Made by a program: the position numbers and the translations under genes | Part shown: positions 944 to 47,450 of the stretch, piece by piece | Layout: every line of letters starts with the position of its first letter | Numbering within the stretch: the first letter of the stretch is position 1 | Assembly: GCF_018977255.1 (NCBI RefSeq) | Contig: NW_024704746.1 | Coordinates: forward strand, 31,372,001-31,436,000 | Direction of reading: 5' to 3' | Length of the DNA: 64,000 nucleotides | Source of the DNA: Callorhinchus milii | Taxonomy: Eukaryota | Notes under the pieces: generated by a model | What the model saw: only the letters and a program-made list of their open reading frames with translations | What the model was told of the DNA's origin: nothing | The model's database searches: none

Positions 944-3496
944 CTGCAATAAAAAGTGAAACATCATATAGTATTCCAATATGTTTTTGTAAATCATACC
1001 ACTGTAACATGTTAAAACTTTTCAGTATAGCAGAATTGTTTTAACAGTACATTAATAGTTTATGCATAAGACATTTGCTATATTGTGAAAGGAAACTCGA
1101 ATCCAAGATCATAGCTACTGTTGGCATCATCCAATGCAAATTTGATATAATAGGTAATAATAATAATCCTTGCATTTTACATAGCGCTTTTCACGTCGGG
1201 AGGACGTCCCAAAGCGCTTCACAGAACACACTGCAAAGTGAATTGACTGTATATTTGTGGGTGAACGCGGCAGCCAATTGCGCACAGCAATGTCCCACAA
1301 ACAGTCGTAGATTGAAAATGACCAATTTATTATTGTTTTGGGTTTTGGAGGGATTAGTATTAGGCTCTGTGTGGAGTAAGGAAACTTGCCCAAGGTTTTG
1401 CCCTCTGTCTGGAATTGAACTCAGGTCTCTCGCTTGCAAAGCGAGTGCTCTAACCACTGAGCTACAGGACTCAGATGTCGGACTAGTGATCAAAATATAA
1501 ACAGGTGGTGAAAGAATATCACTGACCTGCAAGTGATTACAGGACAGCAAAGTAATCCAGCAATTTCAAGTATAACATATTATTTGAAACCAACAACATA
1601 TTACTTCTCTTAAATGTTTTTAACCATATTACTTGACATAGCATCTTATCTCATTGTCGAGCCTTCTCATAGCGTTTCACAGGATAATAATAATAATTCT
1701 TGCCTTATCTTCAAGCTGTCTCAAATTGACTGTATATTTTGTGGGTGAAACGCAAAACACTGAAAGATAGTGTGACTATGTGTTTTGTGGCCAAATGTGG
1801 TGGGCAATTTGTGCATAGAGCAATGTTCCACAAATAGTCATGAAAGTGAATAACAATTTAATCTGGGAGAAACTCACTTTTTTCAAATAGTGCAATGAGA
1901 TCTTTATCATCCAACTGAACAGACCGATGGGACCTGGGTATAGGTCTCATTGCAGTGCACTGGAGTGCCAACCTACACTGTGGAGCTTGAACTCCAAATC
2001 TTGACTCCAAGACGATAGCGGATGTCAGTTTAACTCGGGATTGGGCTAGGTCACCATCAAGCAAACTTCAGTAAAGTGCCTGGATTAAAGGTAGTGAAAT
2101 AAAAAGCTTCAGATGCATGAAAGTGGCAACAAAGAGAAGCAGTTGGTCAGGCAAGGTGCCACTGACAATACATCCAAGGTTTGTGAGGATGCAGTTTGGT
2201 GGCGGAAGCTTTTTAATGTGGTGCGGGTCATAAACTGTTTCATGAGGTAGACAGGCAGTTGGAAAGAAGCAGCACACTGATGTTTTGCCCAGGGTGGCCG
2301 ATTGTCTTGAGGGTCTCTGAACGAGAGTACTACCAACTGAGCTAGGCTGACATAATCAAAACACAAAATACTGCCGACGCTGGAAATCTGAAAACGAAAA
2401 CAGAAGTCGCTGGGAAAACTCAGCAGGTCAGGCAGCCTCTATGGAGAAAGGAAAGAGAGTCAATGTTTCGGGTCCATGACTTTTCATCAGAATTGATTCC
2501 CAACATGCCCCAGTTCTGACGAAGAGTCATGGACCCGAAACGTTGACTCACTTTCCTTTCTCCATAGATGCTGCCTGACCTGCTGAATGTTCCAGCGACT
2601 TGTGTTTTTGTTTTGTAGGCTGACATAATATCCACTTAAATTATAATGATCCTTGCATTTCATATAGCGCCTTATCACGGCTTCAGAGCTGTCTCAAAGC
2701 GCTTCACAGAATATATTGTAAAGTGGAGTTACTGTCTATTTTGTGGCTGAAACACGGCAGCCAATTGTCTTGCAATAATATTCACTCCATAGAAAACCAT
2801 ACAATACCCACCGTATTGCCTCTGGAGAAAATAATATAAAGTTTCGCTACGGAAGAAAAAACTGATCTTTAGAAGAGAGTCCCTCAGCCAGAAAGGAGCA
2901 GGAACTACGTTGTAACAAAAAAATGTACGTTTTGTTGGCGAGACCACGGCAGCCAATTGCACACGGCAGTGTCCCACAAGCAGCCGAGGAATGGGTGAGC
3001 AAATTACTATTTTTTTTTTTGAAGGGTCTACTAACCCCGAAAAGAAAATTACAAGCCAGTTTAAAAAAAAAACTAAACGAATGAACTGTACATTTATAAA
3101 CTTTCATATGAACGTAGGCATCCCCAACCCATGCCACCGGGTCAACGGTGAGTATACAACCCCGTCACCCCAAGGCTGGAGCAGAATGGCAGAGCCTTCC
3201 CCGCTCCACAGCGTATGGACATTTCAACGTAGGCGGCCACCATCGAACCCATTCTTGATGGGAGAAGGTCCCAGGAACGAGGACCAAGACCGGGGCACCA
3301 AGAACACCGACCAAGATAATAACCCCTCCAGAAAATGGAACAATAATAAACCGGTCACTTCGATCCACGGCGGCTCGCGGGACGCTGCCGCCGCGTTTCG
3401 CCCTCGGATGTGCGGTCACGACGCTTCACAGCCTATTCCGCGAAGCGCTTTGAGACGTTGAGAAGACGTGATTGAGGCGCTGCCTCAAATGCAAGG

Positions 3497-3528
<32 letters not shown>

Positions 3529-3923
3529 GACCATCGGTCCAAGCCCCAAGCAATCAAAAATGCAAGGACTGAAATTATCCGACTATACCACATGTTATTA
3601 TTATTACTATTATTATTATTAATATTGCGATGCGACACTAGTTTCTCACAGCGGTTACCCAGCATCAGGGACCAGGGGCCAGAGACCGAGACCCGCAGCC
3701 ACAGGAGCACTGACCGGCACCGGAGGCCATCAAGGCCCCCATGTTGCTGCAGCTCCGGGCAGCCTGCGGTCAGTTTGGCAGCTCCCTGACCCCCGCCCCA
3801 CGGGCCTGACGTGGCCCGCGGGCCGGGGCGGTGTGGAAGGGGCGGGGAGGGGGGGGGAGGGAACTGACTTACTTTGGTCAAGTCTATGCCGGAGCCGACC
3901 AACGGCAAACCGTCCGCGTCCAT
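845..3923 (-). CDS. WASHC3: WASH complex subunit 3 (CCDC53), 5' part; join(complement 3873..3923, 845..943); gene continues left of the window
   Basis: MDADGLPLVGSGIDLTK|VPAIQQKRTVAFLNQFIAHTVRFLNRFSTVCEE matches the vertebrate CCDC53 N-terminus; GT-AG junctions, phase 0. Confidence 0.95.
1155..1472 (-). mobile_element. Full-length young tRNA-derived SINE (Deu-like core, L2-type tail)
   Basis: A box TAGCTCAGTGG, B box GAGTTCAATTCC, TGC anticodon loop, core GCTGTGCGCAATTGGCTGCCGCG, (ATT)n tail; near-identical to 18873-19188 and 56805-57125. Confidence 0.92.
2458..2494 (-). ncRNA. Degenerate minimal hammerhead ribozyme motif (inverted copy)
   Basis: AAUU-CUGAUGA-A-AAGUC(AUG)GACCC-GAAA-CA-UU-GACU; mismatches in stems I, II and III. 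Confidence 0.5.
2512..2548 (+). ncRNA. Minimal type I hammerhead ribozyme motif
   Basis: AGUU-CUGACGA-A-GAGUC(AUG)GACCC-GAAA-CG-UU^GACU; stem I AGUU/GACU, palindromic ACGU stem III. Confidence 0.65.
2643..2990 (-). mobile_element. SINE variant with an extra ~160-bp domain
   Basis: SINE tail and core plus segment 2768-2930, which is shared with 15689-15860. Confidence 0.7.
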
Positions 3924-4700: not shown

Positions 4701-6661
4701 TGAAACAGTAAACCCAGAGCAATATTTTAGGATGCACCAAGACAGTCGAACAAGAAGACATAGATTTAAGAGTGCAGTGTAATGATCCTTTCATTTGATA
4801 TAGCGCCTTATGTCTGTGAGACGTCTAAAATGTTATTATTATTTCGAGTGTAATTTATACCTCTACATGTGTATGTCATATAAAGTGTGGGCGTAAAATT
4901 TATTGGAATTACCCACAAAAATATATATTTTTTAATAGCCCACAAGCTACCATATTACATTTATCTTGGAAAGAGGAATGAGAACTGACTGGAACCCAAC
5001 ATCGTAATATTACATTTTCCACTTGTTAGGCCATTCTCAATAATGCCGACTACTGGAAGATCACCGAATAATTAGGTGACTAGTGACGGTGAGAATTTAT
5101 AGAAGAGGAGGTGCAATTGGTGATATTTCTGGACATAGTTTGGCTTTTCTGATGATAATCTCAATTTATGGCACCAGTTCTTTAGTTCCATGAATTCCCT
5201 TATCACCCCCTGACTGTGTATACAGGCATTTTCCCAAAAGCACAGAGATCATGTCACTCGCTGCATTTTTGTTTTGCAATGTAAGCGACAACCTGAGATG
5301 GCCCAGAATAAACAATAACATTTATTTAAAGCTGAAACTACTTTTATTTTTCATATCCCACTATTGTGCTGTATTTTGTACAAATTCTGCCAATCATACC
5401 TGGCTTTTTAATGAGTCTAAACCATTAAGAGTAAGGTTTTCCCCCTGCTCTTAATCTTACAATACACTTAAAAACTGAAATTATCTGTTGCCATAAAAAC
5501 TCTAGCCTAATCATTATCACTAAAATTGTATGATCACTCCATTTGATCTTACTCATGTAATGCAACTTTAGAATTCTGCAACTTGGAAAAAATGTATGAC
5601 ACAAGTAGAATTTGTTAAGTAGGCGAAGGGGAATAAATCATTTAAGTAAAAAATAATTAAAATAACTAAATTTAAATTAATCCAAAATAATCCTAAAGAT
5701 AATCATGCATTGTAATTAAAAGTCTTCGTGTTGATGACATTAAGCATGTCATGGAGAAGTGTTTTAGAAGAGTTTCCTAGCGTAGTGAAGCTGAATTAAC
5801 ATAGATGTAAAGCAACATATATATGTTAGTTTCATCAACCTGTACCAGTCAATTCTCCCAGTGATTAAGTGAGCTCTTGCTTATAAACAAATTAGACAAT
5901 AACAAACACAAAAGCACAAATGATAATTATATACTTCATTACTCTTGAAACATAAACTGAAGTCCTATTCAGTCACCCTGCTTTAGTACATCACATTTCC
6001 TTTTGTTTGTTTATGAAGATTTTACTGTGCTTTTTAGCTGTTTATTATTCTTTTGGTCAGAGCACTCATTATTTCTGTATTTAAGCCTTTTATATTGGGA
6101 TGATATCTTCTGTCATTTCTGGAAATTTGATGCGTTTTACTTAGTATTGGCTCTTCCTATGAAAAGCCTACAATTCTGTTACTACAGCTCATGAACTCAA
6201 TTGTATTTTACTAGACCCAGATTAGACCTTTGGACACTATACTATACATATCCATAATCTAACCTATAGTTTTCAATAAGACTTACTAAAGAAAGTACTA
6301 AGCAAATAATTGTCAGTAATAAAACAAAAATTATGGTTTGTAAAACAGCCTTACGTTGAAGGCATTTTGCTCACTAACATTCAACCTCAAAACCTGGGCT
6401 ATATAATCAAACCTTAATTGCAAGTGGCATTTACAATGCATTGGTCTATATTCCAAACTGAAATGCTGGCAATAATTATCATGATCACATCACAAAACAA
6501 GTCAATGTTGAGCAATATTCAATGGCTAACTTCCAGACATTGCTGCTCTGTGACTTCATGAACTGCCTCTAGGAAATGTGAGATGGAAAAGTGATTCATT
6601 TTGTTACTACTTTATTTAAATCAGTTACTATCTGTTGAGGGGCTGAATAAACTCGGGTTAA

Positions 6662-7550
6662 TAACAACAACAAAATTACATTGTATAATGCCTTTTACGT
6701 CGGGAGGACGTCCCAAGGAGCTGGACAATCAGTGTTTCGGACCCGAGCTGGGGGTTTCAGGATTGGGGAGGGTGGAGAGCAGTGGGGGAAGGAGGGTGAC
6801 CGAAGGCATGGTCAAAGAGGAGGGTCTTGAGACGGGTCTTGAAGGAGGCAAGGGAGGGGTGAGGCAGAGGGCTGCGGGATGGAGTTCCAGAGGGTGGGGG
6901 CAGAGTGGCAGGAGGCCTGCCTGCCAATGGTGGGGCGAGTGAGGCGGGGATATGAAGCAGGCCGGAGCCCACTGAGAGAAGGAAGCGAGCAGGTTGGTAA
7001 GGGGTTAGAAGGTCGCAGAGGTAGGGGGGACCAAGACCATGGATGGCTTTGAAGGTGAGGACCAGGACCTTGAACTGTATCCTTTGTGCGATTGGAAGCC
7101 AATGAAGTCGAGCGAGGATAGGGTTGATAGGGCCTCGGAGCCTGGTGCGTGAGTGGACATGGGCTGCAGAGCTCTGGATGATCTGCACCCTATGGAGGGA
7201 GGAGTTGGGGAGGCCGACAAGCAGGGAGACATTCTGTCAGAAGTCGAGGGTGGAGGCAGAGAGATAGTTTGGTGTCCTCCGAATACATGTGGAAATTGAC
7301 CCCATGTCTGCAGATGACGTCACCAAATGGGAGCATATAGGTATTGAAAAGGAGGGGATCAAGGACAGAGAACTGAGAAATTCTACACAAGACAGTGTGG
7401 GGGCTAGAGGAGAAGCTGTTTGTGGAGATGAAGTGGAGATGGTGTGAGAGGTAGGATCTGAACCATTCATGGAAAAAACCATGAAGATTGAGGTGAGAGG
7501 AGAGGTGGTGGAGGAGGATAGAGTGGTCAATGGTATTCTTTGGAAGTCAG
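6662..7550 (-). mobile_element. L2-clade LINE 3' fragment (degenerate RT)
   Basis: SVLDPLLFNTYMLP...FHMYSEDT (RT motif remnants) and PILARLHWLPIAQRIQFKVLVLTFKAIHGLGPPYL; (TGT)n tail. Confidence 0.9.
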
Positions 7551-9170
7551 GAGGTCAACTATCTCAACTATCTTGTTGAGATCTTCAATATAATGAAAGG
7601 TGTTGACAAAGTAAATTGGCAACTACTCTTAATTCTATTTGGGGAATCCAGGTCAAGAGGATATAACTGAAATCATCTTTGTTGCTTTTCCCTGAGCCCT
7701 CTCCAATTGTCCTTTTGAAGGTAGGGTGCCAAAAGGAATATAATATTCAAAATGAGGCCTCATCAGAGATTCATAAGTTAGAATATCTAATTTTCACTTC
7801 TGACCAAATACAATCAAGATGCAGCCTAGTATTTGCTCAGTATTTAACAGCTTTGAGTTGACTTTGCTTACTGATGGTGTTTCTGCACACTTGGAAATTT
7901 CAATCAAATATTCTTATTCTAATTTTTATTTGTTTGAAATCTCCTTCTTGTTTTATTACATCTATTATTAACAACCAGTAGAAATGTCTGGTTGTTAGTC
8001 TGGTCAAAGAGATTATATGCACATTGGAATCTCAATTATCTTCTATATTGGAAATTGCATGATGGTATATGAAATAAAGACATATCTCTCCCCCCACCCC
8101 CCCAATATAGTCTCTAGTCACTATATCCTTCACAGGTATTTTTTTGCTCTGATGTATAGTGATTATATATTTGTAGGAAGTGTGTTAAGGAGATGGGCTT
8201 CCTGAATAGATACCCCAGTACCACAAACAGGACTGATACATTGTACGTAGGAAACATTTAGGTATTTTTAAAAAAAATTTAAATGATGCGGGATTTGTGA
8301 CAATTTATTTGCGTAGGAAGTAGAACAGTTTCTGCTGTTCTAACAATTGAAATAAATCCCAGTTGTGAGATTACATCATAGATCCTGCGCACACGCTTTA
8401 AACAGAACTCCTAATCCTGGCATAACATTTAAACTCTATGATCGGAATCAGTCATAAAACTTAATGCAATTATTTGCATGAACAACGCTTAGCACACTTA
8501 ATATTTCCATACAACCCACATCCTGTTCCTCTAAAGTGTTTTGACTTACCTACCATAGAATTTCACAATAAACTCTTAATTCACATTCAGTTGAAGCATG
8601 ATTAAAGCTCTATTGTCTTCTTAGTTGGCAAAGATTTGCAGACAGACTCAACTTCTGGAACAGACTGATAATGTCTGGTGGGAAACAATCTGCTGCACTT
8701 CAATCCCTGGCAAAACATTTAAAACAATTCAGTATATATAAATACATATCATTTTAATGGTCACTTAAAGTTTTATTGGGGTACATATATCGCCTTGTGA
8801 ACTGGTACTTACTGATTGCTAAAACATACATTATTTCAAAACTAGCCACGCATTCATCAGGATAGAACTGCACCTAAAATTGTGTCTGCATTTCACTTGC
8901 AGCCTGAAGTTGCGATCAGAGCATTATTTTGAGTAGGGAGTTTTCTCCAGTACAGTATTAGAGATTGAGAGTATGGCCGCTGAATAGAGGGGGTTGCTTG
9001 ATTGCGTTTGACTATATGGTGCACTCTTTCCCTGGAGGAACCTATCCTGCTTACCTAATTCCATTGAATGTCATTGGTGGCATTTAACCAGCTAAAACCT
9101 CCATCGAGAGCACTGTCTGGGAAGCTTTCTGCTGCTTGTCCAGCTAGTCATTAGCCAACCCTACTCATTA

Positions 9171-9478
9171 GGCCTGTAGCTTAGTAGTTAGAGCAACCAC
9201 CTCGCCAGCGAGACTTGGGTTTGATTCCCGGCAGGGCGAAATCTTGGGCAAGTTTCCTTACTCCACATGCCTGATAGTAATCCCTCAAGAAAAAAAACAA
9301 TAATAATTTGGTCACTCAATCCATGACTGTGGGACACTGTTGTGCACAATTGGCTGCTGCGTCTCATCCAAAAGTATACAGTCAATTCACTTTACAGTAT
9401 ATTCTGTGAAGCACTTTGAGACGTTTAGAAGATGTGAAAAGTGGTATATCAAATGCAAGGATGATTATTATTATTATT
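9171..9478 (+). mobile_element. tRNA-derived SINE, same family, older
   Basis: Head, core and (ATT)n tail recognisable. Confidence 0.85.
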
Positions 9479-9601
9479 ACTCCTTTTGGCTTGCAGGGTT
9501 AAAAGCAACTAAATGGGAAGATTCCCTGCTCCCCAATGATTAGTCATTCCCTCCACATCCTCCTGATGAGCCAGGCTGGCTGGTCTGTCAACAGTACTGG
9601 A

Positions 9602-9900
9602 ATAATAATAATCCTTGCATTTGATATAGTGCTTCTCACGCCTTCTAGACATCTCAAAGCGCTTCACAGAATATATTGTAAAGCAAATTGACTGTATATT
9701 TGTGGGCAAAATGCGGCAGTCAATTGCGCACAGCAGTGTCCCACAACAGTCGTGGATTGAAATGACCAATTTATTTATTTTTTTCTTTAGGAATTATTAT
9801 CAGGTGTGTGGAGTAGGGAAACTTCCTCAAGGTTTCACCCTGCCAGGAATTGAACCCAGGTCTCTCGCTGGCAAAGCGAGTGCTCTAACCACAGGACTCC
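9602..9900 (-). mobile_element. tRNA-derived SINE, same family
   Basis: Full length, inverted relative to 9171-9478. Confidence 0.85.
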
Positions 9901-16600: not shown

Positions 16601-19600
16601 GTTTCAGCCATGGCTTCCTCTTTTTATACATCAGCTGATCTCCTGCCTCTACACATGGGATCAGACCACCACCTCGGATAAGGGCAGAAACCAAGAGGGA
16701 ACAAGTAGGATAAACATGTTGGAAAGCAGCAGCTGTCAGGGTACAATGGGTGGTTAGTTGTCAAGAACAGAAATGATAGGAGGAGCTACTTGTTCCATTG
16801 CAGAATGATGACACAGGCAGAGATATATAAAGAATTTGGCTTTCAGATGCTGAAACTTTTATTTTACTTGGAATTGTTATATTTGTTATTTACAAATAAT
16901 TAACTAAACAAAGTTCGGTGGTGCAAACGGTTTGGGTCAAAACTTTTACAGTCTAGCTGTTTTCTCCAAGAAAATACACCTTCCGATCTGTATTACTAAC
17001 ATTTATTTGGAACTTGGCTCTAATTAATTACCATGGGAATCGGGCAAGGTATTAGGAATCTTGAAGTTAGGGACCAATGGGGAGGGAAGAGGCAGTGATA
17101 AGAGTAACATGCAAGTAATATAAGGAACAGGCTGATGGGATGGCTAATCTTTTTTGTTCCAGGTTTTCTTATATTCATAATCACTCCCAAATTTCCAACT
17201 TAAGCTTCATGAAAGATACAAATTCCTGATCCTAATTAGAATCCAAACTGGTTTGCATTCTTGTGGTAATGTTAATGTTCAGTGTTTCATTCAACATATT
17301 AGCAAATGTAATTCAATTTCATGAAAAGTAGAAACGAAGTATGAGTATTATCCTGGAGTGAAATACAGTATTGGGTTATTAATTATCCTATTATTGAGGC
17401 TAAAAGAAGCCACAATTAAGCTTGTTTACCCTTGCACTAAAATTCTGAAATTTTGTTTCAAAATTAATGGATCTATACTAGCGTTATTTCACCACTGAAT
17501 TTAGTTTCAAGCTAAAATGGTTTCAAAACTGAAACATTGTTTAACATATTTAATGAACACGAGTGCTTTCCTACCTGAGTACCTGTGGCACTGTGTCAAG
17601 TTTAGTTTCTGGACTCCAAGCGATTGCATCTACACGAATACCACGATGAAAAGTCTTCAGTGTATTGTATTCTACACCTTTAATTTCAGTGTCTTCTTCC
17701 TAAAATATATTGAAAAATAGGATTTAGAATATTCATCCTCCACTGGATTCAGAATAGTTAACACCTCTTACTCATTTATAACTTGTATGTGAGAATGTGA
17801 AAACCTGTCACCTTATTTTTCACACATTACTCTGAGCTTGACCATACACCAACGCTCATTGGCATGCTCACAATGTCACATGCGTCAGTGTAGGTCTGGA
17901 GGAGAAGCCATTTGGAGAAGATAAGAATGTATATAGTTGCTCAAACAGATGGGATTGAAACTTGGAAAGGACTGAGAACAGGGACTTGCATTTGAATGCA
18001 GCTTGGACTGAAGAAATACAAGTCTTCCCCTTTTGCTGATTAATGAAAGCTAGTGTGGGAAAAGAAAAAGATCATACAGATCATACTTGAGGTTAGGTCT
18101 CAAGGAGCATTGTTCATTATATAGACAGAATATATTCAAAGATTTTGAACAGTTTGATAGTATTTGATAGTATGTATGTGAGATGATGGCACAGTGGGTT
18201 AAGAGACCTGGTTTGAATACAGCTTGAACAAAGATTAAAGTCTTCTCCCTTCACTGGCTGAATTCTACAACTGAATTGGAGAATGCTTCATGGGATTACT
18301 AACGAGATGCCAAAAAGTTAAATCACTGGGAAGTTTAATAGAAGCTTTTCAACGCTGTTAGACAAACCTATCAATGGACTTCAAAAATCACTGTGAATCA
18401 AAACTCCAATCCTTAGTCATATTTCAGCCATGAATTTTATGCAGTGTTTTAATACAGAAATGAGGGTCAGTGCATTGCAGGTATAGATAACTACCAGGTC
18501 TATTTGTGGGTGGGGGGGTAGTCAGCAGTTAAGTAGAATGATGGGAACGCACACCTAAGCACATGTGTAGAGCTCTGGTTATACTATTATGGGCAAAATT
18601 GAAGTTATGCAAATTTCTACAGAATTACTCCAAAGTGTACAGTATAAAGACTGAATGATACTTGTGACTGTTGGTCTGTGAACCTAAAATAACTGTTTAA
18701 AAAAACAGGGTGGTGGGGTGGGGAGGGTGGTGGGGAGGTGAAGAAATGTTAAGCTGATAACATATTTAAACTGAGATTCATGATTCATTTTAGAACGGAT
18801 TTGACAGATACATGTGTTTCATCTGTTGGGACCGTTTCCAGAATTAGATGCATCGGACAAGTTACATAATTATAATAATAATCCTTGCATTTGATATAGC
18901 GCTTTTCACGTCGGGAGGACGTCCCAAAGCCCTTCACAGAACGCACTGTAAAGTGAATTGACTGTATATTTGTGGGCGAACGCGGCAGCCAATTGCGCAC
19001 AGCAATGTCCCACAAACAGTCGTAGATTGAAAATGACCAATTTATTATTGTTTTTGGTTTTGGAGGGATTATTATTAGGCTCTGTGTGGAGTAAGGAAAC
19101 TTGCCCAAGGTTTCGCCCTCTGCCTGGAATTGAACTCAGGTCTCTCACTTGCAAAGCGAGTGCTCTAACCACTGAGCTACAGGACTCCACATGTCCGTCA
19201 CCCAAGTACAGTGGTGTAAGTATCAAATGCAAGGATTATAATTCATATTAAATTATTATTATTATTATTGCACGTGTCTGGGGCGTTCAGCACAGGATCC
19301 TGTTTGTGGGTTTTCCAGAATTTATTGGGATTAATCTATTGTCTTATTTACAACTACAAAAAAACCTGGAGCTCCTTAATACATAGAAACCTTTAACGTG
19401 AAGTGGGAATAGAGAGCCATGAGAGAGAGAGAGAGAGGGGGGAGGGGGCAATCCACTAATTTACATGCCATCCATTGCTAGTGTGGCTGCCAGGCCAGGG
19501 CAGGGCGGGCCAGACCAGGGCCAGGGAAGGGCAGGCCAGGGCAGGGCAGGGCGGGCCAGACCAGGGCCAGGGAAGGGCAGGCCAGGGCAGGGCAGGGCAG

Positions 19601-20436
19601 GGCGGGCCAGGGCAGGCCAGACCAGGGCAGGGCGGGCCAGGGCAGGGCGGGCCAGGGCAGGGCAGGGCAGGCCAGGGCAGGCCAGGGCGGGCCAGACCAG
19701 GGCAGGGCGGGCCAGGGCGGGGCGGGCCAGGGCGGGCCAGGCCAGGGCGGGCGGGCCAGGGCGGGCCAGGCCAGGGCAGGGCGGGCCAGGCCAGGGCGGG
19801 GCGGGCCAGGGCAGGGCGGGGCGGGCCAGGGCAGGGCGGGGCGGGCCAGGCCAGGGTGGGCCAGGGCAGGGCGGGCCAGACCAGGGCAGGGCAGGCCAGA
19901 CCAGGGCAGGGCGGGCCAGACCAGGGCAGGGCGGGCCAGGGCAGGCCAGGGAAGGGCAGGCCAGACCAGGGCAGGGCGGGCCAGACCAGGGCAGGGCGGG
20001 CCAGGCCAGACCAGGGCGGGCCAGGGCAGGGCGGGCCAGGCCAGGGCGGGCCAGGGCAGGCCAGGGAAGGGCAGGCCAGACCAGGGCAGGGCGGACCAGG
20101 CCAGACCAGGGCGGGGCGGGCCAGGGCAGGCCAGGCCAGGGAAGGGCAGGCCAGAGAAGGGCAGGCCAGGCCAGACCAGACCAGGGCAGACCAGGGCAGG
20201 CGGGCCAGGCCAGGGCAGGGCGGGCCAGGCAAGGGCGGACCAGGGAAGGGAGTGGGTTAGATTGGGCGACAAACCTGGAAGCTGCACGTCCCAACAACCA
20301 CATAGTTGCGGCCTCCGTAGGCGAGGAGGCCCCCGGCCAGGCCGCTCCCGAAGGGGCTGAACTCGGCCACGTGAACGCACTCCTCGCACTGGGCCGTGTA
20401 GGTGGCGGTTCGGGCCGCGGCCGCCGCGTCCTTCAT
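10518..20436 (-). CDS. NUP37: Nucleoporin Nup37 (WD40), 9 coding exons, 328 aa
   Basis: Exons 20275-20436, 17575-17699, 15428-15500, 14951-15045, 14074-14164, 13434-13615, 12442-12492, 11778-11871, 10518-10631 sum to 987 nt, in frame, all GT-AG; colinear with human NUP37 (IAWSPET, ASVSDDHTCRIW, SWHRTLPLCVIGGDHKL). Confidence 0.97.
11778..11871 (-). CDS. NUP37: NUP37 coding exon 8
   Basis: WSRASENLFATTGCPGKINSQLLVHHLGHPQ, 94 nt. Confidence 0.95.
12442..12492 (-). CDS. NUP37: NUP37 coding exon 7
   Basis: YPQDKRPSHLDGARRF, 51 nt, phase 2-2. Confidence 0.93.
13434..13615 (-). CDS. NUP37: NUP37 coding exon 6
   Basis: LMVAEKNGIIRFYDL...WFIWDITRS, 182 nt. Confidence 0.95.
14074..14164 (-). CDS. 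NUP37: NUP37 coding exon 5
   Basis: IWDLEGNQKASFLLHSPGMSVCWHPEESFK, 91 nt. Confidence 0.95.
14951..15045 (-). CDS. NUP37: NUP37 coding exon 4
   Basis: VIEGHADYINDLVFEPNDGKQIASVSDDHTC, 95 nt. Confidence 0.95.
15428..15500 (-). CDS. NUP37: NUP37 coding exon 3
   Basis: LCTADADNKLRLLTSDLKDENGWK, 73 nt. Confidence 0.95.
15689..15985 (+). mobile_element. SINE variant with an extra ~160-bp domain
   Basis: Reverse-complement similarity to 2643-2930. Confidence 0.7.
17575..17699 (-). CDS. NUP37: NUP37 coding exon 2
   Basis: EEDTEIKGVEYNTLKTFHRGIRVDAIAWSPETKLDTVPQVL, 125 nt. Confidence 0.95.
18873..19188 (-). mobile_element. Full-length young tRNA-derived SINE
   Basis: Near-identical to 1155-1472. 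Confidence 0.92.
19489..20250 (+). repeat. GC-rich variant-pentamer tandem array (GGGCA/GGCCA/GGGCG/GACCA/GGGAA)
   Basis: ~760 bp, almost no T on + strand, G3 tracts throughout; in NUP37 intron 1. Confidence 0.97.
20275..20436 (-). CDS. NUP37: NUP37 coding exon 1
   Basis: MKDAAAAARTATYTAQCEECVHVAEFSPF...VVGTCSFQ|gt. Confidence 0.93.
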
Positions 20437-20650
20437 GGTCTCCGAGCCCCGCCCCCGCCTCCTCCGCCCATTGGTCAGTTTCGCAGCCCCCGCGGCGCTG
20501 GCCATTGGCTGCTGCCCGGCTAATCCGGGGCTCCGATTGGACCATCCCTGGTCCCGCCCCGCCTCCGCGCTCCCGTTGGTCCGATCGCTCGCGTTCCATC
20601 CGCTCTCTCGCTGATTGGTCGCTCGCTCACTGGTGCGGGAGATTTAAATT
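20437..20650. promoter_or_regulatory. NUP37/PARPBP bidirectional CpG promoter with CCAAT array, GC boxes and CDE/CHR
   Basis: ATTGG at 20470, 20504, 20536, 20614; CCCGCCCC boxes; GTGCGG-N4-TTTAAA at 20633-20648. Confidence 0.8.
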
Positions 20651-21628: not shown

Positions 21629-24600
21629 GTATGTGCCTTCTCCACTATCTCTGTTCACATCTGTTGCTCTATTTTTCTGGTGTCATTCACTCCTACCTGT
21701 TCCGGTGTCTTCACTTCATCTCATTCAATGGTGTCTTTACTTGTCCCTGCAGGGTTACATGGGGAGTTCAGTAGGGCTTTACCCTCAGTCCTCTCCACTT
21801 CATCTACATGTTCTCCCTTGGTGACATTTTCAGGCATGGATCTATTTCCATACACAGATGACACACAACTCTATTTTTCTGCTTCTTCCCTCGATTTCTG
21901 TAACACCGCTGTTCTGAAATACTGCTTGTCAGACCTCAAGTCCTGGATGAGCTGTAATATTCTCCAACTCAATGTCAACAAACCTGAGACAATCTTGCTT
22001 GTCTCCCATTAGTGCCTCCTTGTCTCCCATTTGCGCCTCCTCGCCTAATGTTTTCATCATATTCATCTCCCCAGTTGCTCAGTCCAAATCACAGAGCCTG
22101 TGCAGAACAAAGATTTCACTTTCCTTCAAACCTTTCACTTGGGATCTGACCAAGCTACCTTTCATCCTCGTCCGCAAAATCTCCTGGCTCTGCCATTACC
22201 TTGTCATCTAATGCAGTATAAACCCTGATCTGTACCTTTATGACCTCTCAAGTCCTCCTGACGTGAAAGGCGCTTTATAAATGGAATCTTGTTGTTGTTG
22301 TTATTCAACTACTCACTGCCCTCCACAATTTCCAGTCCACACAAAACTCTGCAGCCCATTATCCTCTCTTGCACCGGGCTCTGTGGGACCATGACTCCCA
22401 TCCTGGTGCCCTCTCCCCAAAGTGCTGTAGGTGCTGTTGTTGCTTGCAGGTGTTAACATTGTAAATGCAGAACATTTGAAATAATAACCATTTTCTGGAG
22501 TTTATTCTAAATGTTTTGGAAGAGTTTGTACCGTTGTAGAAGTGGGTAAGACCATCACGTGAGTTAATGCCTTGCCCTTCAATGCCAATGGAGATGTCAA
22601 TGAGCTATAACTTTTTCCAACTCGACCTTTTTATGCTCAGGTGTGGATCCCTGATTGTCCAGTGCCTTACAACAACAACAAGATTCCATTTATAGAGCGC
22701 CTTTCATGTCGGTAGGATGTCCCAAGGCGCTGTACAGTTGGGTCAGGACCCGAGCATTGGGGGGAAATGGTCAGGGTGAGGGGAGGGAGCGAGGAGGGGG
22801 TAGAGAGTCGAGAGGGGAGCTGAAGGCACGGTCAAAGAGAAAGGTCTTGAGACCAGCCTTGGAGGAGGAAAGCGAGAAAGCGGCGAAGGCACTGGGGGAT
22901 AGAGTTCCCTGTTAGGATGTTCTCCTATGCTAGGTGCTATTATACATGTAATTTGTTGTTTTTGTATGGTCATGCTGGTTCACTAAAATCTTAAAAAAAG
23001 CGAATAAACTAATCTTATCTAGTAGGTTTGCTTAACTTGCTTTCGATTTCCTGATCCAAAATTGCGTTTGTCAGGCTTTGAGGAACATTTGCACCTGCAA
23101 GGAGTTCCACTTGCCAGCATCAAATGCTGTTTAACTTTTCAATGTTATTAAAGATTTCATGACACATAGAGGACAAATTAACTGCTCAAATCTCTTTGAA
23201 GGTCTCTAGCATAGAATACATTGCCATTTTAGAATTTTTTTTAGTCTTTGTAGCTTTAGACTATAGGATACTATGCGCTTTGCCACCTGCAGCCTAAATT
23301 TGTTCTGTAGTTTGCTTCCCTTTCTTTCTAAGCCTATGTTATTCAAAAGGACATTTGTGTCCGAAAGCCATTTCATCAATCTAGTATGTAACATATTCTC
23401 CCATCAGCACTGAATAATCTGTGAGCAAATGTAAATCCCATCTAAATAATGTAAGCTGATGCACAAATGAAAGATGCTTTACAAATGTGGATTTATAGGG
23501 ATACAGCCATTTGGTGCATTCCTAGTAAATCTCTCTTCATCTTTCCAGATGACTGCTACCATGGGGCAGCTGCTCAAGAGATAAAACCGCATGCTGTCCT
23601 GTCAATGGTTCTGGACTGCCAGTCTCAACCATCAGCTAGGACCACCGTGGTCTGAAAATAGATGTGCATTATTTGGAATTCTATTAAATGTCACATGGAT
23701 ATCTCCACATCACACTGTGGAGAATTCCAATCCTAAATTGGCTCCCAGTTCAACAACTATGGGATCCCATTTCAACAACTATATATCCAGTTGGTCTTCC
23801 ACTGATTTATAGTATTTAGCTATAAACCTTCCTATTCCTACCTCTGGAATCTCAATCCAGTATTGATAAACAGGACTTAGCCTATTTAGATTCCAACCCA
23901 AGTTTAAACATGGATCTTATTTCCAAATATTGACATATAAGACTTTGGCATCCATTCCGTTGTAAGAGATTGAAGGTCACTAATTTATCAGCTGGATAGA
24001 ACTGCCTGATTGACTAAACCTGTTGTATGCCAGACTTTCCAGCACATTACTCTAGTCCATCTCTCCCACCACACACAAGTATGCAAACGCATACATCTCA
24101 AATATCACAGAATTTCTATCTAATTGTCCTAAGCTCTGAAAAAATTACGGTTCCACACGAGGATGAATAGCTTTAAAGAGTTGTTTTGCTTCGGCAAAAA
24201 CAAAACTTTCAACAGAGAGCCAACAGTGACAAGATATTTTTTTCTGGTATAAAATGTATTTTATACAGTTGCATGTTTGCACAAGAGAGGTGCAGATCCA
24301 GATCCATTTCATTTGTGATGAGCATTACATTTATGTGACAGATATATTACAGATACCAATTGAAATTACAGTCACATGTTATACTCTTAGCTCTGAGTCA
24401 CTCTTGCTCTTAGGTCAGTCCAGTAAAGACTGTGTGCACTAAGTGTATGTGCAAACTGAAAAGCAGCACTGAATGTGAGTTAAGTTTCAGTATTATCGTT
24501 AGAGTTGGGAGTGTGTTTTTTTTTCTTCTTCCTTACTTTGTGAACCACTGTCTCACTATATGAACCTTTTCTCTTGAATATTGCTTTTCTGCATTTAATC

Positions 24601-27600
24601 CTCAGTCCTGTGGAGAATTCAGCATTGCCTTAAGTGATGTGCTTGTGTCATGGAGGCACTTACTTCAGGAGAAACTAAACCTGCTGAGTGAAGGTGAAGA
24701 AGCACCAGAAGGATACGTTAAAGTTCGAAAAGCTTATGATGCTTTCCTGACCAGAAGTAACTCTGTTGACCTGATTGATGTGTACAGGATTTGTATTGAG
24801 TTAAAACCTGAAAATGGACTTCGAGAAATGTTATCTGTGGTATGTTGACGGTATGAATCATTTTGCACAAACACATAAATATATATATCTATATTCATGT
24901 GTAATTTAGATTTAATCTGCTAGCCTGCTTGTATTTTTCTGCTTAACATAATCTAAATCCATTAGGTTTTTCTGTTCATGCTAGTCTGTGAGAAATAACA
25001 ATGCATATAGGATTTGTATCTAAAGGTGAATTTGATCTTCTGTTGCAAATTATTGGGTCTTGTATGATGTTGCGGAGTGGTGTGTAATAGAATAACTAAC
25101 TGGACTGTTACTGCCAGGTGCAACTGTTCGACTTCCTGTCGGGATCATCTGAAACTTTGGATAACTCCTTGATCTCAGTTCCCACTTCCCCATCCAATGG
25201 GTATCCAATCAATTCTAAGGTGAGCTCAAAATATTTTGGGAAATGATAACTTTATATAATTTTTTTGAATGGCGATCTTGTAAAATAGAGAAGCCCTGTT
25301 AGACGATGTTTCTTTACAATGGTGATTAAGTTAGGTTACCCCGTTCACTAAACATGCAGGTAGCAGTCTCATTGACCTCCAATGTACCATCAAGATGTCA
25401 CACTAAAATGATCTGCCTTTGGGTCACTACCCATGCCATTTCACTGGAGGTGATGCCAGAGAAAACCTGAGAAGTTGGCCATTTTATTTTCACTTTAGCT
25501 AAAAATGGCTGACTTCCAGATCTTGTATTGCCAGCTGTGTGTTTGTGGGGGGATTTCACACCTCTAACCTTACGATAAAGATGCATGCAATGGGCCTTTT
25601 AAACTATCTCCTTTTTAGACAATGCTGCATTTGCGGCTTCAGGAAAGTGAAGCAACTCTTTGTGTGAAGAAATGTTTTCTCATCTAACTTCAAACCAGCT
25701 GAACTCTAACTTTATATTCATGTCTCCTTGTTTTGGATATCTCAACCAGAGGTAAGAGTTGTCCTTTGCCTCATTCAAATCGCCCCTTAACCTTCTAAAT
25801 CTAGTGAAATTTATCCAGACTCTCATATTAGCTAAGGCCCTTCATCTGGATATTAACCTAGTGAATAGTTGCTACAAACACTCCCTTATTCTTCCTAAGG
25901 TTGGGTGTCCAAAACTGAATATAATACTCTAAATGAGGTTCAACCAGTAGTGCAACAGCAATTTTCCTTTCCTAGTCCAGACCACTTGTTATAAATCATG
26001 GCATCCCATTAATGGTTTGATTGCTCTCGGCACCTGTGAGGCAGCCTTTCATGCTCTCTACTTAAATCCCTAAATATCTTTGTTAATATACCCCTCCCTC
26101 CTCCCCATTTAGAATGTATTCACACTAACCATTATCCCCTCAAAGGGCACCACTTTTCTATGATGAACTACATCCAAATCTGGTTAACATTAAAAAAAAG
26201 AACATCAGTATCTGATCATCTAAATCTGAGAAAGAAAACTGGGAGAAAGGGATATCCAAATTGTTTTTTGTTTTGTTTTTTAAATACAAATTGGTTGATT
26301 TGGTTTTATTTTCTTAACTAGTCAGAAAGTACAGAATTGAAGCTCAAATACAATTGCTCTTAACCTATTAAAGAGTATCTGAAATCTAGTTGGGCAGAAC
26401 TATCAGCGTTCTGGTGGTGTCTGCTTATGCTGCCATTGCAAATATGTTGTTAACAAAAAATATAGTTCTGGAGTTGAGACTTCTCGTGACTGGAACAAGG
26501 AAAGCTTGATAATATTGGACTGGCAAAGTGTACAGGGTGGTGTTCCACTTACTGAACTCTCCCTGGTTTGCCCATCTGGACCAGCAAATATGGAGTCTTC
26601 AGATTCCATCACAGTTTCAGTAATGCATAATTACCAACTGCTGTTCAGTTCATTTCAGCAACTGCTTACGATTAAATCAGCGATAGCTAAAGGGAAATAG
26701 TCACCTGCTCCATAGTTCATGCCCCTATAAGCCCTACTTGACGGCTTCTCTTCCAGTCCCTGCAACGTCATATGCAACATTCCTCAGGGCTCTGTCCTTG
26801 GTCCTTTCCTCTTCAATATCTATATGCTCGCCCTCGGTGACATCATTCGCAGACATGGGGTTAATTTCCACATATATGCAGATGACACCCATCTCTGCCT
26901 TCACCCTCGACTCCAAGACCACAACTGTCCTGATGGATTGTCTATCAGACATCAAGTCCTGGGTGAGAGCTAACATTCCCCAGTTGACCATCGACAAGGC
27001 TGAGGCCCTCCTGCTTAGCTCCCATCAGCACCTCCAAACCTCAGGCGCTGACAGCATCACCATCCAAGGATGAGCCAGTCTGGAACCTTGGCCTTCAACA
27101 CTGGTTGGGCCCTCAGCCTTCTTGTCACCACCCTTTGAAAGTCCACCCCATAGTCCTTTCACCTCACACCCTCCCTTTCCTCTAAGGCCTGTCTCAAGAG
27201 CCTCCTCTTTGACCGCATCTTCAATTACCCTCCTATCCTTCCAGCCCTCCTGATCCTAACCACCAGCTCGGGTGTGGTTCCTCGACCGTCCAGCACCTTG
27301 GGACTTTCTCCTGATGTGGAAGGTGCTATAACAAATGTAATTTGTTGTTGTTGGAGACGTGAACATAAATGATCTCTTCTCATACGTAATCCTTGAGGTT
27401 ACACTTAGTAATAATATAAACTTTCTCCTTTTCTTGATAACATTGTCCAGAAAAGAAAAAAAAGGTTCTGGTTTAGATTGGTAAATCTGAAAAATTAAAT
27501 GGCTGATTTGACTATGTAATAGCTGAATCCTGCATTAATATTTTTGTGTTACATTATTTTTTTTGCTGCAGTTGGCCCTGATGGTGAAGAAGCTCCTCTG

Positions 27601-36600: not shown

Positions 36601-37340
36601 CTGCCCTACGGTCTGGTCAGCCTGTTGTATCTTTTCTCAGGGCTCTGTCCTTGGTCCTCTCCTTTTCAACTTCCATATGCTCCCGCTCAGTGACATGAAC
36701 CGCAGAGATGAGGGCAATTTCCACATGTATGCGGGTGACACACGACTCTATCTCTCTGCCTCCGCCCTCGATAACAGGACATCAAGTCCTGGATGAGAGC
36801 TAACTTTCTCCAGTTGGGTCTGTTTGCCTGCATAATTGCAAATACACTTATTATGAAAGGGGCTTTGAAGCTTTTTGATATTATAAGGTGTTCTATCAAA
36901 TGCAAGTATGCTACATTAGAATTTCACCATTGTTAAACCAGAAAACTTTCTCTCCTTTCTATCCACCTGATCTCCCCCTCGAACTAGATGAATGTGAACC
37001 TAGAACATCAGCAGCTCACTCACCAGTCAGTAAAGAATGTGCAGTGAAGAAACATGGACTTGGGATGAAGGCTGGGAACACTCAACATAAGCAAAGCGTG
37101 AATCTGAAGGGCAGCAGGAAAGTGACCAAGCGGAAACTGACCGAGCTGAACTCTCTTTCGGAATGCAATGATGCAAGTGAGCCACGGCAGAAGTCTGGTA
37201 AAACGAATGATGTGAAGTGCATCCCATTGAAGGGTAAAATAGATATGAAAATGCCAATGTCATCAAAGAGAGGCAAAAATGCAGCCAAGAATAAGTTAAT
37301 TCCTGGACAAGGAAAGTTAACGCACTTTTTTAGAATGTAA
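21479..37340 (+). CDS. PARPBP: PCNA-interacting partner PARI / PARP1-binding protein, 10 coding exons, 592 aa
   Basis: Exons 21479-21628, 24606-24839, 25118-25219, 27572-27742, 29534-29688, 31444-31627, 32988-33166, 33588-33672, 35548-35713, 36988-37340 sum to 1779 nt, in frame, GT-AG; [26 protein letters not shown] and C-terminal PIP box QGKLTHFF. Confidence 0.96.
21745..22302 (+). mobile_element. L2-clade LINE fragment
   Basis: YTDDTQLY...[22 protein letters not shown]; (TTG)n tail. Confidence 0.85.
22670..22915 (-). mobile_element. L2-clade LINE 3' end
   Basis: (CAA)n tail and 3' stem-loop shared with 6662. Confidence 0.75.
24606..24839 (+). CDS. PARPBP: PARPBP coding exon 2
   Basis: [18 protein letters not shown]...EMLSV|gtatgt, 234 nt. 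Confidence 0.93.
25118..25219 (+). CDS. PARPBP: PARPBP coding exon 3
   Basis: VQLFDFLSG...[14 protein letters not shown]|gtgag. Confidence 0.92.
25620..26170 (-). mobile_element. Old CR1-type LINE fragment
   Basis: Degenerate CR1 ORF2 antisense motifs (CCAAAACTGAATATAATACTCTAAATGAGG). Confidence 0.55.
26733..27352 (+). mobile_element. L2-clade LINE fragment, internally deleted
   Basis: PQGSVLGP and YADDT coding remnants, then the 3' tail. Confidence 0.85.
27572..27742 (+). CDS. PARPBP: PARPBP coding exon 4
   Basis: [20 protein letters not shown]...QTSLFL|gtaaa. Confidence 0.95.
29167..29285 (-). mobile_element. CR1-type LINE 3' end
   Basis: GATCAGCCATGATCT...CTCCTGTTCCTATGTTCC; reverse complement of 53562-53648. 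Confidence 0.75.
29534..29688 (+). CDS. PARPBP: PARPBP coding exon 5
   Basis: [18 protein letters not shown]...EILGETADS. Confidence 0.95.
31444..31627 (+). CDS. PARPBP: PARPBP coding exon 6
   Basis: [11 protein letters not shown]...GISPAR|gtaaa. Confidence 0.95.
32770..32957 (-). mobile_element. 5'-truncated SINE
   Basis: Tail and core; ends ~30 nt before the PARPBP exon 7 acceptor. Confidence 0.75.
32988..33166 (+). CDS. PARPBP: PARPBP coding exon 7
   Basis: [20 protein letters not shown]...[16 protein letters not shown]...LTLF. Confidence 0.95.
33588..33672 (+). CDS. PARPBP: PARPBP coding exon 8
   Basis: [28 protein letters not shown], 85 nt. Confidence 0.9.
35548..35713 (+). CDS. PARPBP: PARPBP coding exon 9
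   Basis: [17 protein letters not shown]...TSTE G|gtaaa. Confidence 0.9.
36636..36820 (+). mobile_element. L2-clade RT fragment
   Basis: CAGGGCTCTGTCCTTGGTCCT (QGSVLGP), similar to 26785 onward. Confidence 0.75.
36988..37340 (+). CDS. PARPBP: PARPBP coding exon 10 (stop, PIP box)
   Basis: phase-1 acceptor ctag|AT GAA; ends [17 protein letters not shown]. Confidence 0.88.
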
Positions 37341-37759: not shown

Positions 37760-40700
37760 CTGTGGGACAAAATAGAAAAGGGATGTTAATTTATACAAAT
37801 AATCAGATCGTCATCTTTGCATTTGATATAGTGCTTTTCACATCAGGAGGACTGCATTCCAGTCACAGCCTGGACTATGTAGTTCAAGATCCCAATGAGA
37901 GGTTTAAACCCACAGCCTTCTGACTTGAAGGTGAGTGTGCTCTCAAAACTGAGCCAAATTGTCACTATGTTCAGTGCAATCGAGTTTTATACAACCGTCC
38001 TGCATCATGTAACTTGTGTGTTTCTGGATGCGAATGAAAATATGATTACAAGGTTGTGAGTCAATTGTGTATTTCGAGCTCTTAAGCAACTCTGGACAGA
38101 TCATAAACTGGATTATGCTGGGGTTTAGGGGATATGCAGGAGGTTAGGGGATGTGCAAGGAGGAAGAGAATGGGGAATTTTAGGTGGAGGCTAGCAATTA
38201 AATCAACAGTAATGCAAAAACAATATTAATACAAGGATAATTTCAAAGAATATTGTAATCCTGTTAGCTATATAATAATCCTTACATGTAACAGAATGTG
38301 GTAACCCTACTAGCTGTAAAGAAAATTTGCCTCCAAATAACAAAAATAAATATTTTCTTATTTTCTAATATTTACATATTTGCAAGAGGGCTATTATCCA
38401 GACAACCGCATAGAAATGTATTCAATAACTAGTAGACAAAATCATCAGTTGGCTTCTCTTTTTACACAGTACAGACCCATCCACTACTGCGAGTCATAAT
38501 TCTGAAATGTAGTTTTGGATACTTTGAATGAGAAAATATGTGTCTGTTTTGCATCCACCAGGATTGTAATATTAATATTACATTGGCACTATCCCTGCAT
38601 TATTGGCCTGGCACTGGAAGACATTAAGTCTATTCTATTTTATTGGATTATGGCAGATCTTTTAATCCTATTTCCAAACTTTTTTTCTCCGAATCTCTTA
38701 ATCATACTTCCCGAGTATCTCCATCTTTTAAACATCACAATACATTTTTCATTCACAGCCTTGAGCAGCAGTGAATTCCTTGCTTTCAAACTTTTTTTAA
38801 ATTTTTTTTTTCAAAATTCCTATCCTTCAGAGGATCCAGTTCAAGATCCTGGTCCTCACCTACAAAGCCCTCCATGGCCTCACCCCACCCTACCTCTGCG
38901 ACCTCCTAACCCCCTACCAACCCGCCTGTTCCCTCCGCTCAGCCGGCTCTGGCCTGCTCCACGTCTCTCGAGCCACCCGCCCCACCATTGGCAGGAGAGC
39001 CTTCAGCCATTCTGCCCCCAACTTAGCCTCCTTCAAGTCCCGCCTCAAGATCCTCCTTTTCAGCCATGCCATCGGTCACCCCCCTTCCCCTGCCCTCCCT
39101 TCTAAAGGCGCTACACAAATGTAATGTTGTTGTTTGTGTGGGAAAAAAATTGGAGTTCCTTATCGTGGACAGATTGTCTGACAAGTTGCCACACAGAGGT
39201 GAAGTAATTCCAACACAACACCTTGAAAAAAAGGCAAAGACTCATCTTAAAAAGTTGGCACTCATCTTGCATGGGGAAGAACATTCTTGTGGCAAATGTT
39301 GAAGCCTAGAATAAGTAAATTAATAAATAAAATAAACGAATAAATTGATCGTTTTTGTTGCAGCCCACCCTTCTGTCATTCCATGTCCCTACTCGACTGG
39401 TATTTCAGCATGACTGGTCGACAGAATGCAAAGTACTTACTGTCAAAATCTCTCCTGGTTACAGGAAATTTGCTTATACCTTCCATATCACCAGAACCTC
39501 TTCGAGCCTCTGTTGTCTCAGTCTGCTGTATATTGTCAGATAATTCTGATTTGCCCGCACCTTTGATTACAAAATAAGGTGGCTGTTTCACTGTGGCTTT
39601 CAATGGTGGAGTGGATTTGAGCAGACTTTGGTTGGCAAAATTTAGATGATCTTGAATGATTTTCCAGTCTGATTTATAACCCAAATCCTGAAAAGAAGAA
39701 TGGATGCATAAAACAGTATTATTAATGTAGTGTCACTCTGAAAGCATTTTGTGATAATTGTAGTAGCTTTTACTGATGTTGTAACATGTCGGTATTTCAG
39801 AGGCAGGAACTTTGTGGAAGAACTTTTACCAAATCGTTGTGCAAACGTAGTTGCTGTTTCTCTTCTCCCCTACATTCTCTGCCTCCCCAAAATAATTGGA
39901 TGGTTGTTGTCCACTTGCTGGCAAGCAGAGCATGAGATGCTTGTGATACAAGCTGGTTTACCTTTTAGCAGGGGAATAGTAAGCGAAGCGAGGAGACTGA
40001 AACAAAGATAGGGATGCAAAACAATCATTTAACCTTTCAGAAAGATTAATCCATCTTTTAATTGTTTCTCTGTTCGGGCTAATGTGCTGCTTCTAGTTAG
40101 TATTACCCTTTTATTGGACAACATTTAATTACATGCATTGCAAAAAAAATTATCATGGGATTTTTTAAAAAGATATTTGTAGTTTAAATGTTCTATGTAA
40201 GACACTCTATACTTTGCTCTTAAACCCAAGATTGATGAAATTGATTTAAAATTTGGGAGCACATATAAAGAAACCGCTCCAACAAATTTCTGTTCATCAT
40301 TTTCTTTTAATAAAAAGCCAGTCAGGACAATATTAGGAGCATTACAAATGGCTTCAGTATTCTGGGTGGGAGAGAGGGAAAATAGCCAATATTCACACTC
40401 CCGATCATCTAATGTTTCTTTGGAGAATGGCTATGTCAACATTGGATGAGAATAGAATCAAGATTGGCTCCAATGTTCCTCATAGTAGAATGGCCATTCG
40501 AAGCTCACACATCAAGAGTGACATTTTGGCTGAGGAACAGGATATGACTGTGAGCATTAATGAAATTACACTACAGCATGAGAAGCTGCCTCAGGAGATC
40601 TAGGCTTATTTTTTCTTCTGACCGAATTATTATTTATCAAAGTCTAGCACGCGATGATTCAGAGTTGGAGTTGGTATTAGCCACTCTGAATCATAAATAA

Positions 40701-47335: not shown

Positions 47336-47450
47336 AAACACAGCAGATACTGGAAATCTGAAATAAAATCTCAGTATTGGAAATTCACAGATCAATTTGA
47401 AAGTTAAGGTTAATGTTTTTAGGTACAACCTACCTGCATTTCTGTTTTAT
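47336..47450. mobile_element. Degenerate remnant of the Penelope-like terminus
   Basis: AAACACAGCAGATACTGGAAATCTGAAATAAAA resembles 2357-2405. Confidence 0.5.

Follow-up and report, generated by a model that had tools for sequence, protein, structure and literature searches.

A short intronic insert in Callorhinchus milii is probably the remnant of a Penelope-like element with two inverted, hammerhead-bearing ends

The window, meaning the whole stretch of DNA analyzed here, spans 64,000 nucleotides of a Callorhinchus milii contig. Between 845 and 56445, the gene order is WASHC3, NUP37, PARPBP, PMCH, and IGF. WASHC3, PARPBP, PMCH, and the insulin/IGF family are backed by Pfam or UniRef matches, and the exon at 36882-37337 shows 100% identity across 77% of length to UniRef V9KL86, the Callorhinchus milii PCNA-interacting partner. 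The exon at 20257-20643 (minus strand) is what we take to be the 5′ exon of NUP37, and the name IGF1 is likewise our assumption. A GC-rich 5-bp tandem array of ~148 copies (19491-20250) adjoins this presumed NUP37 exon. Repeats are distributed across the window. Mutually related LINE reverse-transcriptase remnants, presumably L2-like, lie at 6660-7550, 21770-22020, 26690-27350, and 38800-39100. Three tRNA-headed SINEs (1155-1479, 18862-19195, and 56799-57125) are mutually 96-97% identical, with many older copies at 70-85%, and an inverted SINE pair (9170-9473 and 9601-9892; 128 nt apart, ~80-83% complementary) could form intronic double-stranded RNA. The SINEs probably belong to the C. milii families of PMC5499810.

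The subject of this study is an insert in the first intron of WASHC3, also named CCDC53. Pfam CCDC53 matches 815-1000, and on the minus strand the intron is bounded by a GT donor (3872) and an AG acceptor (before 943); exon 1 is presumed from what we take to be the vertebrate N-terminus. The features of the insert and its host intron are as follows.

944 to 3872, minus strand: intron 1 of WASHC3/CCDC53, host of the insert (splice sites and Pfam CCDC53)
2343 to 2356, no strand: left target-site duplication (TSD), 14 bp, 100% identical to 2616-2629
2357 to 2390, minus strand: tail of the type found in Penelope-like elements (PLEs), 33-34 nt, on the left side only (arm alignment)
2391 to 2495, minus strand: left arm, apparently a 5′-truncated pseudo-LTR (pLTR) end with its 3′ end outward (arm alignment)
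2458 to 2494, minus strand: decayed minimal hammerhead, core starting at 2490, nominal cut after 2462
2496 to 2510, no strand: central loop, 15 nt (inverted-repeat alignment and fold)
2511 to 2615, plus strand: right arm, apparently a 5′-truncated pLTR end without tail (arm alignment)
2512 to 2548, plus strand: minimal type I hammerhead in which every consensus core feature is present (motif, helix pairing, and shuffles)
2616 to 2629, no strand: right TSD, 14 bp, an exact copy of 2343-2356

The boundaries of the insert are sharp. Two identical 14-mers enclose 259 bp (2357-2615), and the repeat stops at 14 bp with no extension on either side. The chance identity of two given 14-mers is ~7e-9. 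A perfect TSD alongside arms that have drifted by 9% since insertion has a probability of ~0.28, and the two are compatible. Because a single TSD encloses everything, we consider the insert the product of one integration event. The first-pass annotation had described the same 259-bp insert between perfect 14-bp repeats and had proposed insertion as one unit; both points hold, with 14 of 14 positions identical. Some 10 bp beyond the right TSD an older SINE copy (2639-2929) begins, which places the insertion at the SINE's AT-rich end.

Within these boundaries, the two arms (2391-2495 and 2511-2614) align over 105 columns with nine substitutions and one indel, an identity of 90%, in agreement with the ~105-bp inverted arms noted earlier. 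The loop between them, previously given as 17 nt, is 15 nt. The one-sided extension of 33 bp also reported is recovered at 2357-2390; its length is 34 nt, or 33 nt with G2615 treated as a mismatched base of the arm. This tail repeats, in degenerate form, the final ~30 nt of the arm. Its similarity to the right arm end was reached by 15 of 2,000 shuffles, and that to the left arm end by 81 of 2,000. Both insert termini are identical inward over seven bases. As RNA, the insert is a long hairpin on either strand, with −171.3 kcal/mol on the plus strand (z −22) and −160.8 kcal/mol on the minus strand (z −19); none of 200 shuffles was as stable in either case. Matches to Rfam microRNA families at 2425-2581 were set aside, being far below gathering score and generic for any long hairpin. 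Pyrimidine tracts followed by AG, resembling splice acceptors, occur on the minus strand at 2439 in the left arm and, judged by eye, at ~2388 on the arm/tail border; as they are oriented with WASHC3 transcription, they are possible cryptic splice sites. A second, unrelated hairpin lies at 53055-53185, with 48-nt core arms that are 77% complementary and an 8-nt loop (−52.9 kcal/mol, z −9). It lacks a hammerhead core, its flanks share no direct repeat of more than 6 bp, and it is possibly an old MITE-like remnant.

Each arm had been said to hold a hammerhead core, with a self-cleaving motif on either strand. The plus-strand motif is complete. Stem I (2512-2515 with 2545-2548) has four of four pairs, as the first-pass annotation had it along with the cut predicted after 2544. 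The core occupies 2516-2522, with an extra A at 2523, followed by GAAA at 2537-2540 and U17. Stem II has four of five pairs, including G10.1-C11.1, with one A-C mismatch, and helix III is a palindromic C15.2-G16.2 without a loop. This motif matches the published consensus for PLE minimal hammerheads feature by feature (PMC4209133). Five core-like motifs occur in the window, and a strict descriptor accepts only this one and none in 300 shuffled windows; as the thresholds were chosen after the motif was seen, the latter count speaks of rarity, not activity. The core alone is matched ~1.1 times per shuffled window. The core-like motifs at 18008, 33199, and 51662 each fail one helix or the helix III palindrome. 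A CAG at 2511-2513 (plus strand) falls inside the 5′ strand of helix I. In Drosophila virilis Penelope, the start of helix I on its 5′ side marks where the intron ends (PMC4209133), and by this analogy the inner arm ends may, speculatively, relate to a splice junction or the RNA 5′ end.

The minus-strand copy retains its core letters, but helices I, II, and III are all damaged, and it no longer qualifies as a minimal type I hammerhead. Three of four pairs remain in stem I and three of five in stem II. The lesions fall at 2493 (stem I), 2482 (G10.1 to A, so that G10.1-C11.1 is lost), and 2464 (the helix III palindrome); positions 15.2 and 16.2 are C and A, and the self-complementary helix III is therefore lost. 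Of the earlier description, then, a hammerhead core per arm is retained, and self-cleaving potential on both strands is not. As WASHC3 is transcribed from the minus strand, it is the broken ribozyme that the host transcript carries in sense, inside the long duplex. Both arms share an A-C mismatch in the second base pair of stem II (2525/2535 and the mirror positions), for which a template variant, a fold-back copy, or conversion between arms could each account.

Forcing the hammerhead fold in the full insert costs 57.5 kcal/mol on the plus strand and 53.1 kcal/mol on the minus strand, and by these models both ribozymes are masked inside the hairpin. Taken as isolated 45-mers, the two motifs are no more stable than shuffles, and the hammerhead fold is not the minimum-energy structure of either. 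A covariance-model search with Rfam, a check proposed alongside the first-pass annotation, gave no match to a hammerhead family, whether the gathering threshold or a relaxed cutoff of E 10 was applied. Minimal hammerheads can cleave as dimers (Lunse et al., as cited in the review PMC6765202). The hammerheads at this locus most likely do not cleave.

We searched for copies, relatives, and a coding partner. A decayed relative had been placed at 47336-47450, but this match does not rise above chance. It gave a blastn E of 0.051 across 28 nt, and a two-arm nhmmer profile gave E 4.2 there against E 1.2 in a reversed-window control. For 26 of 30 shuffled queries, some place in the window scored at least as high, and two unrelated tiles scored above it. 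A similar repeat is presumably abundant in shark and ray genomes, which would make a decayed copy plausible. By blastn, nhmmer, and shuffles, no second copy above chance was found in the 64-kb window, and no tandem head-to-tail array of the insert unit is present at the locus. Translations of the insert contained no reverse transcriptase (RT) or GIY-YIG open reading frame. Pfam found no GIY-YIG domain among 150 open reading frames of the window (146 of the 160 stop-free frames that are 70 aa or longer, plus four added); its five matches were Pro-MCH, Insulin (twice), RVT_1 at 26731-26970, and CCDC53. Protein searches with reading frames across the arms returned no matches, and an Atlas search with the arm frames returned a best score of 0.88 and no family. 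In GTDB contigs, checked for stray host DNA, one search gave three loci, all matching over only 21-23 nt, and another gave none; phage records gave two matches of 33 nt (E 6e-3), and plasmids gave none. Our literature search, with most subscription papers, Repbase, and Dfam outside its scope, did not turn up a family of this kind in cartilaginous fish; the tables of a retrozyme preprint (bioRxiv 10.64898/2026.07.22.740005), also outside it, could already list one. The motif letters are absent from one supplementary file each of PMC8557442 and PMC3964593, and a paper-wide search returned two papers, both unrelated.

The combination of features is familiar from PLEs. The pLTRs of Penelope terminate in a 34-37-bp repeat, present once or twice, and the size of the inverted repeats differs between copies (PMC2377424). 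In the rotifer element Pen2a_Av, an inverted pLTR completes the insert, with a 31-bp tail at one end and a 9-bp TSD (PMC3846280), and PLEs generally include inverted, 5′-truncated copies with a 30-40-bp tail at one end (PMC8557442, PMC8969392). The insert shares with such endonuclease-positive (EN+) PLEs, Pen2a_Av and D. virilis Penelope among them, the inverted terminal repeat, one-sided tail (31-37 bp in those elements), TSD around the whole insert, and 5′ truncation; it differs in having no open reading frame between the ends, of which only ~105 nt each is left. Its TSD of 14 bp also exceeds the 8-10 bp of the rotifer examples (PMC3846280). PLEs occur in all vertebrates surveyed, including elephant shark (PMC4350176).

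The hammerheads fit the same origin. Metazoan PLE hammerheads share the CUGANGA box with an extra base, G10.1-C11.1, GAAA, palindromic 15.2/16.2, and a short helix I (PMC4209133). That paper also reports a truncated bracovirus PLE with a minimal hammerhead at its 5′ end, and opposite-strand pairs of minimal hammerheads 100-700 bp apart in Schistosoma; the two cores of the insert are only ~25 nt apart. Helix II of the insert (5 bp, a 3-nt loop, and a mismatch) is unlike the PLE minimal hammerheads listed there, and the parts of its supplement that we covered hold no chondrichthyan motif. Taken on sequence structure, the insert has the makeup of a PLE insertion: a hammerhead-bearing terminal repeat, an inverted 5′-truncated copy, a one-sided tail, and a TSD. 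It is probably a short remnant of a Penelope-type element in an intron, now dead. The earlier view of a Penelope derivative is therefore upheld as to PLE origin (hammerhead consensus, inverted end, one-sided tail), but not as to a retrozyme- or MITE-like palindrome family, as ordinary PLE insertions take on this geometry one copy at a time, and the reading of a self-propagating family is not needed.

Two neighboring classes were also considered. Metazoan non-LTR retrozymes are, like the insert, short (150-450 bp), non-coding, PLE-derived, and equipped with a type I hammerhead, and they are defined by head-to-tail tandem units, each with its hammerhead, from which they self-process to circular RNA (PMC7229834; bioRxiv 10.64898/2026.07.22.740005). 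The insert is instead a head-to-head pair without tandem units, from which no unit-length RNA is releasable, and assignment to this class was rejected. A class II MITE was rejected on arms that are asymmetric by 33-34 nt, termini of which only seven bases match, and the TSD of 14 bp.

What remains is how two head-to-head, hammerhead-bearing ends, a one-sided tail, and a TSD came to lie together with no coding body. We favor, with rather better than even confidence, a single, heavily 5′-truncated EN+ PLE insertion, now inert, in which each nick primed its own cDNA and the truncated cDNAs were joined centrally. A PLE protein with RT and GIY-YIG activities would nick both target strands 14 nt apart, and each 3′-OH would prime reverse transcription on PLE RNA. 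One cDNA would begin at a distal start site and include the tail and arm (at least 139 nt), and the other would begin at a proximal site 34 nt upstream and include the arm only (105-120 nt). Both would stop 5-20 nt beyond the hammerhead core, perhaps on reaching the 5′ terminus of the RNA, and would be joined at that point, with gap filling yielding the TSD. We infer that the tail (2357-2390) marks the distal RT start site, the right arm end at 2615 the proximal one, and the loop (2496-2510) the junction of the two 5′-truncated ends. The hammerheads would be passengers from a parent pLTR, in which cleavage would take place in a tandem dimer or with the aid of protein.

Two-sided priming is favored because the arms both face outward, with 3′ ends at the TSD, and are unequal by a single tail length, and because the distance from predicted cut to arm end is 71 nt in both arms and 105 nt with the tail included. 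A PLE source is supported by the resemblance of the tail to the arm end, as in the repeat-ended pLTRs of Penelope (PMC2377424). The scheme can be likened to Poseidon of Anolis carolinensis (PAc), whose purified protein nicks and extends both target strands in vitro and whose RT starts at two sites that delimit the tail, downstream of the hammerhead; PAc insertion needs no ribozyme cleavage, and its ribozyme cleaves only with protein (PMC11167929). PAc, however, starts reverse transcription in an AC-rich stem-loop 111-118 nt into the open reading frame, and the insert shows no open reading frame start and has ends that are U/G-rich on the hammerhead strand, which counts against the reading with two start sites. 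Also weighing against it are the failure to find an autonomous partner among the 150 open reading frames or by protein searches with the arm frames, and the lack of any second copy above chance in the window.

A fold-back origin shares the PLE source and is judged unlikely. Here, one cDNA of tail and arm, primed at one nick, would have looped over 15 nt, extended on itself, stopped 34 nt short, and joined the other target end. The small loop, near-identical inner ends, and A-C mismatch common to both arms all speak for it, and with inner ends within 15 nt of each other and that shared mismatch, a fold-back copy or a fixed master is the simpler account of the center. By analogy, self-annealing 3′ overhangs give rise to inverted duplications at L1 sites (10.1101/2024.12.14.628481), and rotifer pLTRs carry short palindromes at their 5′ ends (PMC3846280). 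The outer end argues the other way: the short arm misses the end by exactly one canonical tail length, stopping where a motif resembles the tail end, which is expected from a second RT start site and would be coincidence under fold-back.

The first-pass annotation proposed a non-autonomous, palindromic derivative of PLE ends that is transcribed and re-inserted whole by PLE proteins, which we judge quite unlikely. One TSD around a compact symmetrical unit, with seven terminal bases matching inward and the stem II mismatch common to both arms, would suit it. PLE ends can mobilize sequence in trans (PMC3846280), and non-autonomous PLE derivatives exist (PMC8557442; bioRxiv 10.64898/2026.07.22.740005). 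Yet the ribozyme and RT start region would be buried in a 105-bp duplex that costs 53-58 kcal/mol to open, tandem units are missing, no second copy above chance was seen in 64 kb, and the geometry is explicable without a special family. If both cDNAs of the favored two-sided scheme extended to a fixed 5′ end of the RNA, nearly identical palindromes could arise repeatedly with no such family involved. That chimaeras carry a fixed, palindromic, non-coding PLE derivative, with a constant loop and a one-sided tail, re-inserted as a unit, is doubtful to the same degree.

A DNA-transposon MITE or fold-back element with an incidental hammerhead-like motif is very improbable. Long inverted arms, the 7-bp terminal inverted match, and Rfam without a hammerhead match would fit it. 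TSDs of cut-and-paste superfamilies generally measure 2-11 bp, and the 14 bp here exceeds them; the arms are asymmetric by one tail, and the strict hammerhead descriptor was matched in none of 300 shuffles. The elephant shark mobilome, moreover, is almost all retroelements, with few DNA transposons (PMC4350176). Least credible of all is an insert kept as a functional intronic RNA hairpin or ribozyme on WASHC3 pre-mRNA: its location in intron 1 and the fold of −160.8 kcal/mol on the transcribed strand would fit, but that strand bears the broken ribozyme, the arms are ~9% diverged, and the Rfam microRNA matches are far below gathering score.

As a decayed transposon remnant, the locus itself is of little weight, and its architecture is already published for PLEs, of which it is a further decayed instance. 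Such inserts are easily misannotated as MITEs or microRNA hairpins. Should the palindromic unit family be real, it would constitute a non-autonomous PLE family of hairpin type, separate from tandem retrozymes and with duplex-locked hammerheads. For the question of how PLEs complete integration and produce inverted ends and tails (PMC11167929, PMC8557442), short inserts with both ends and a clean TSD would provide a direct genome-junction test, in a vertebrate, of the model with two start sites and two strands.
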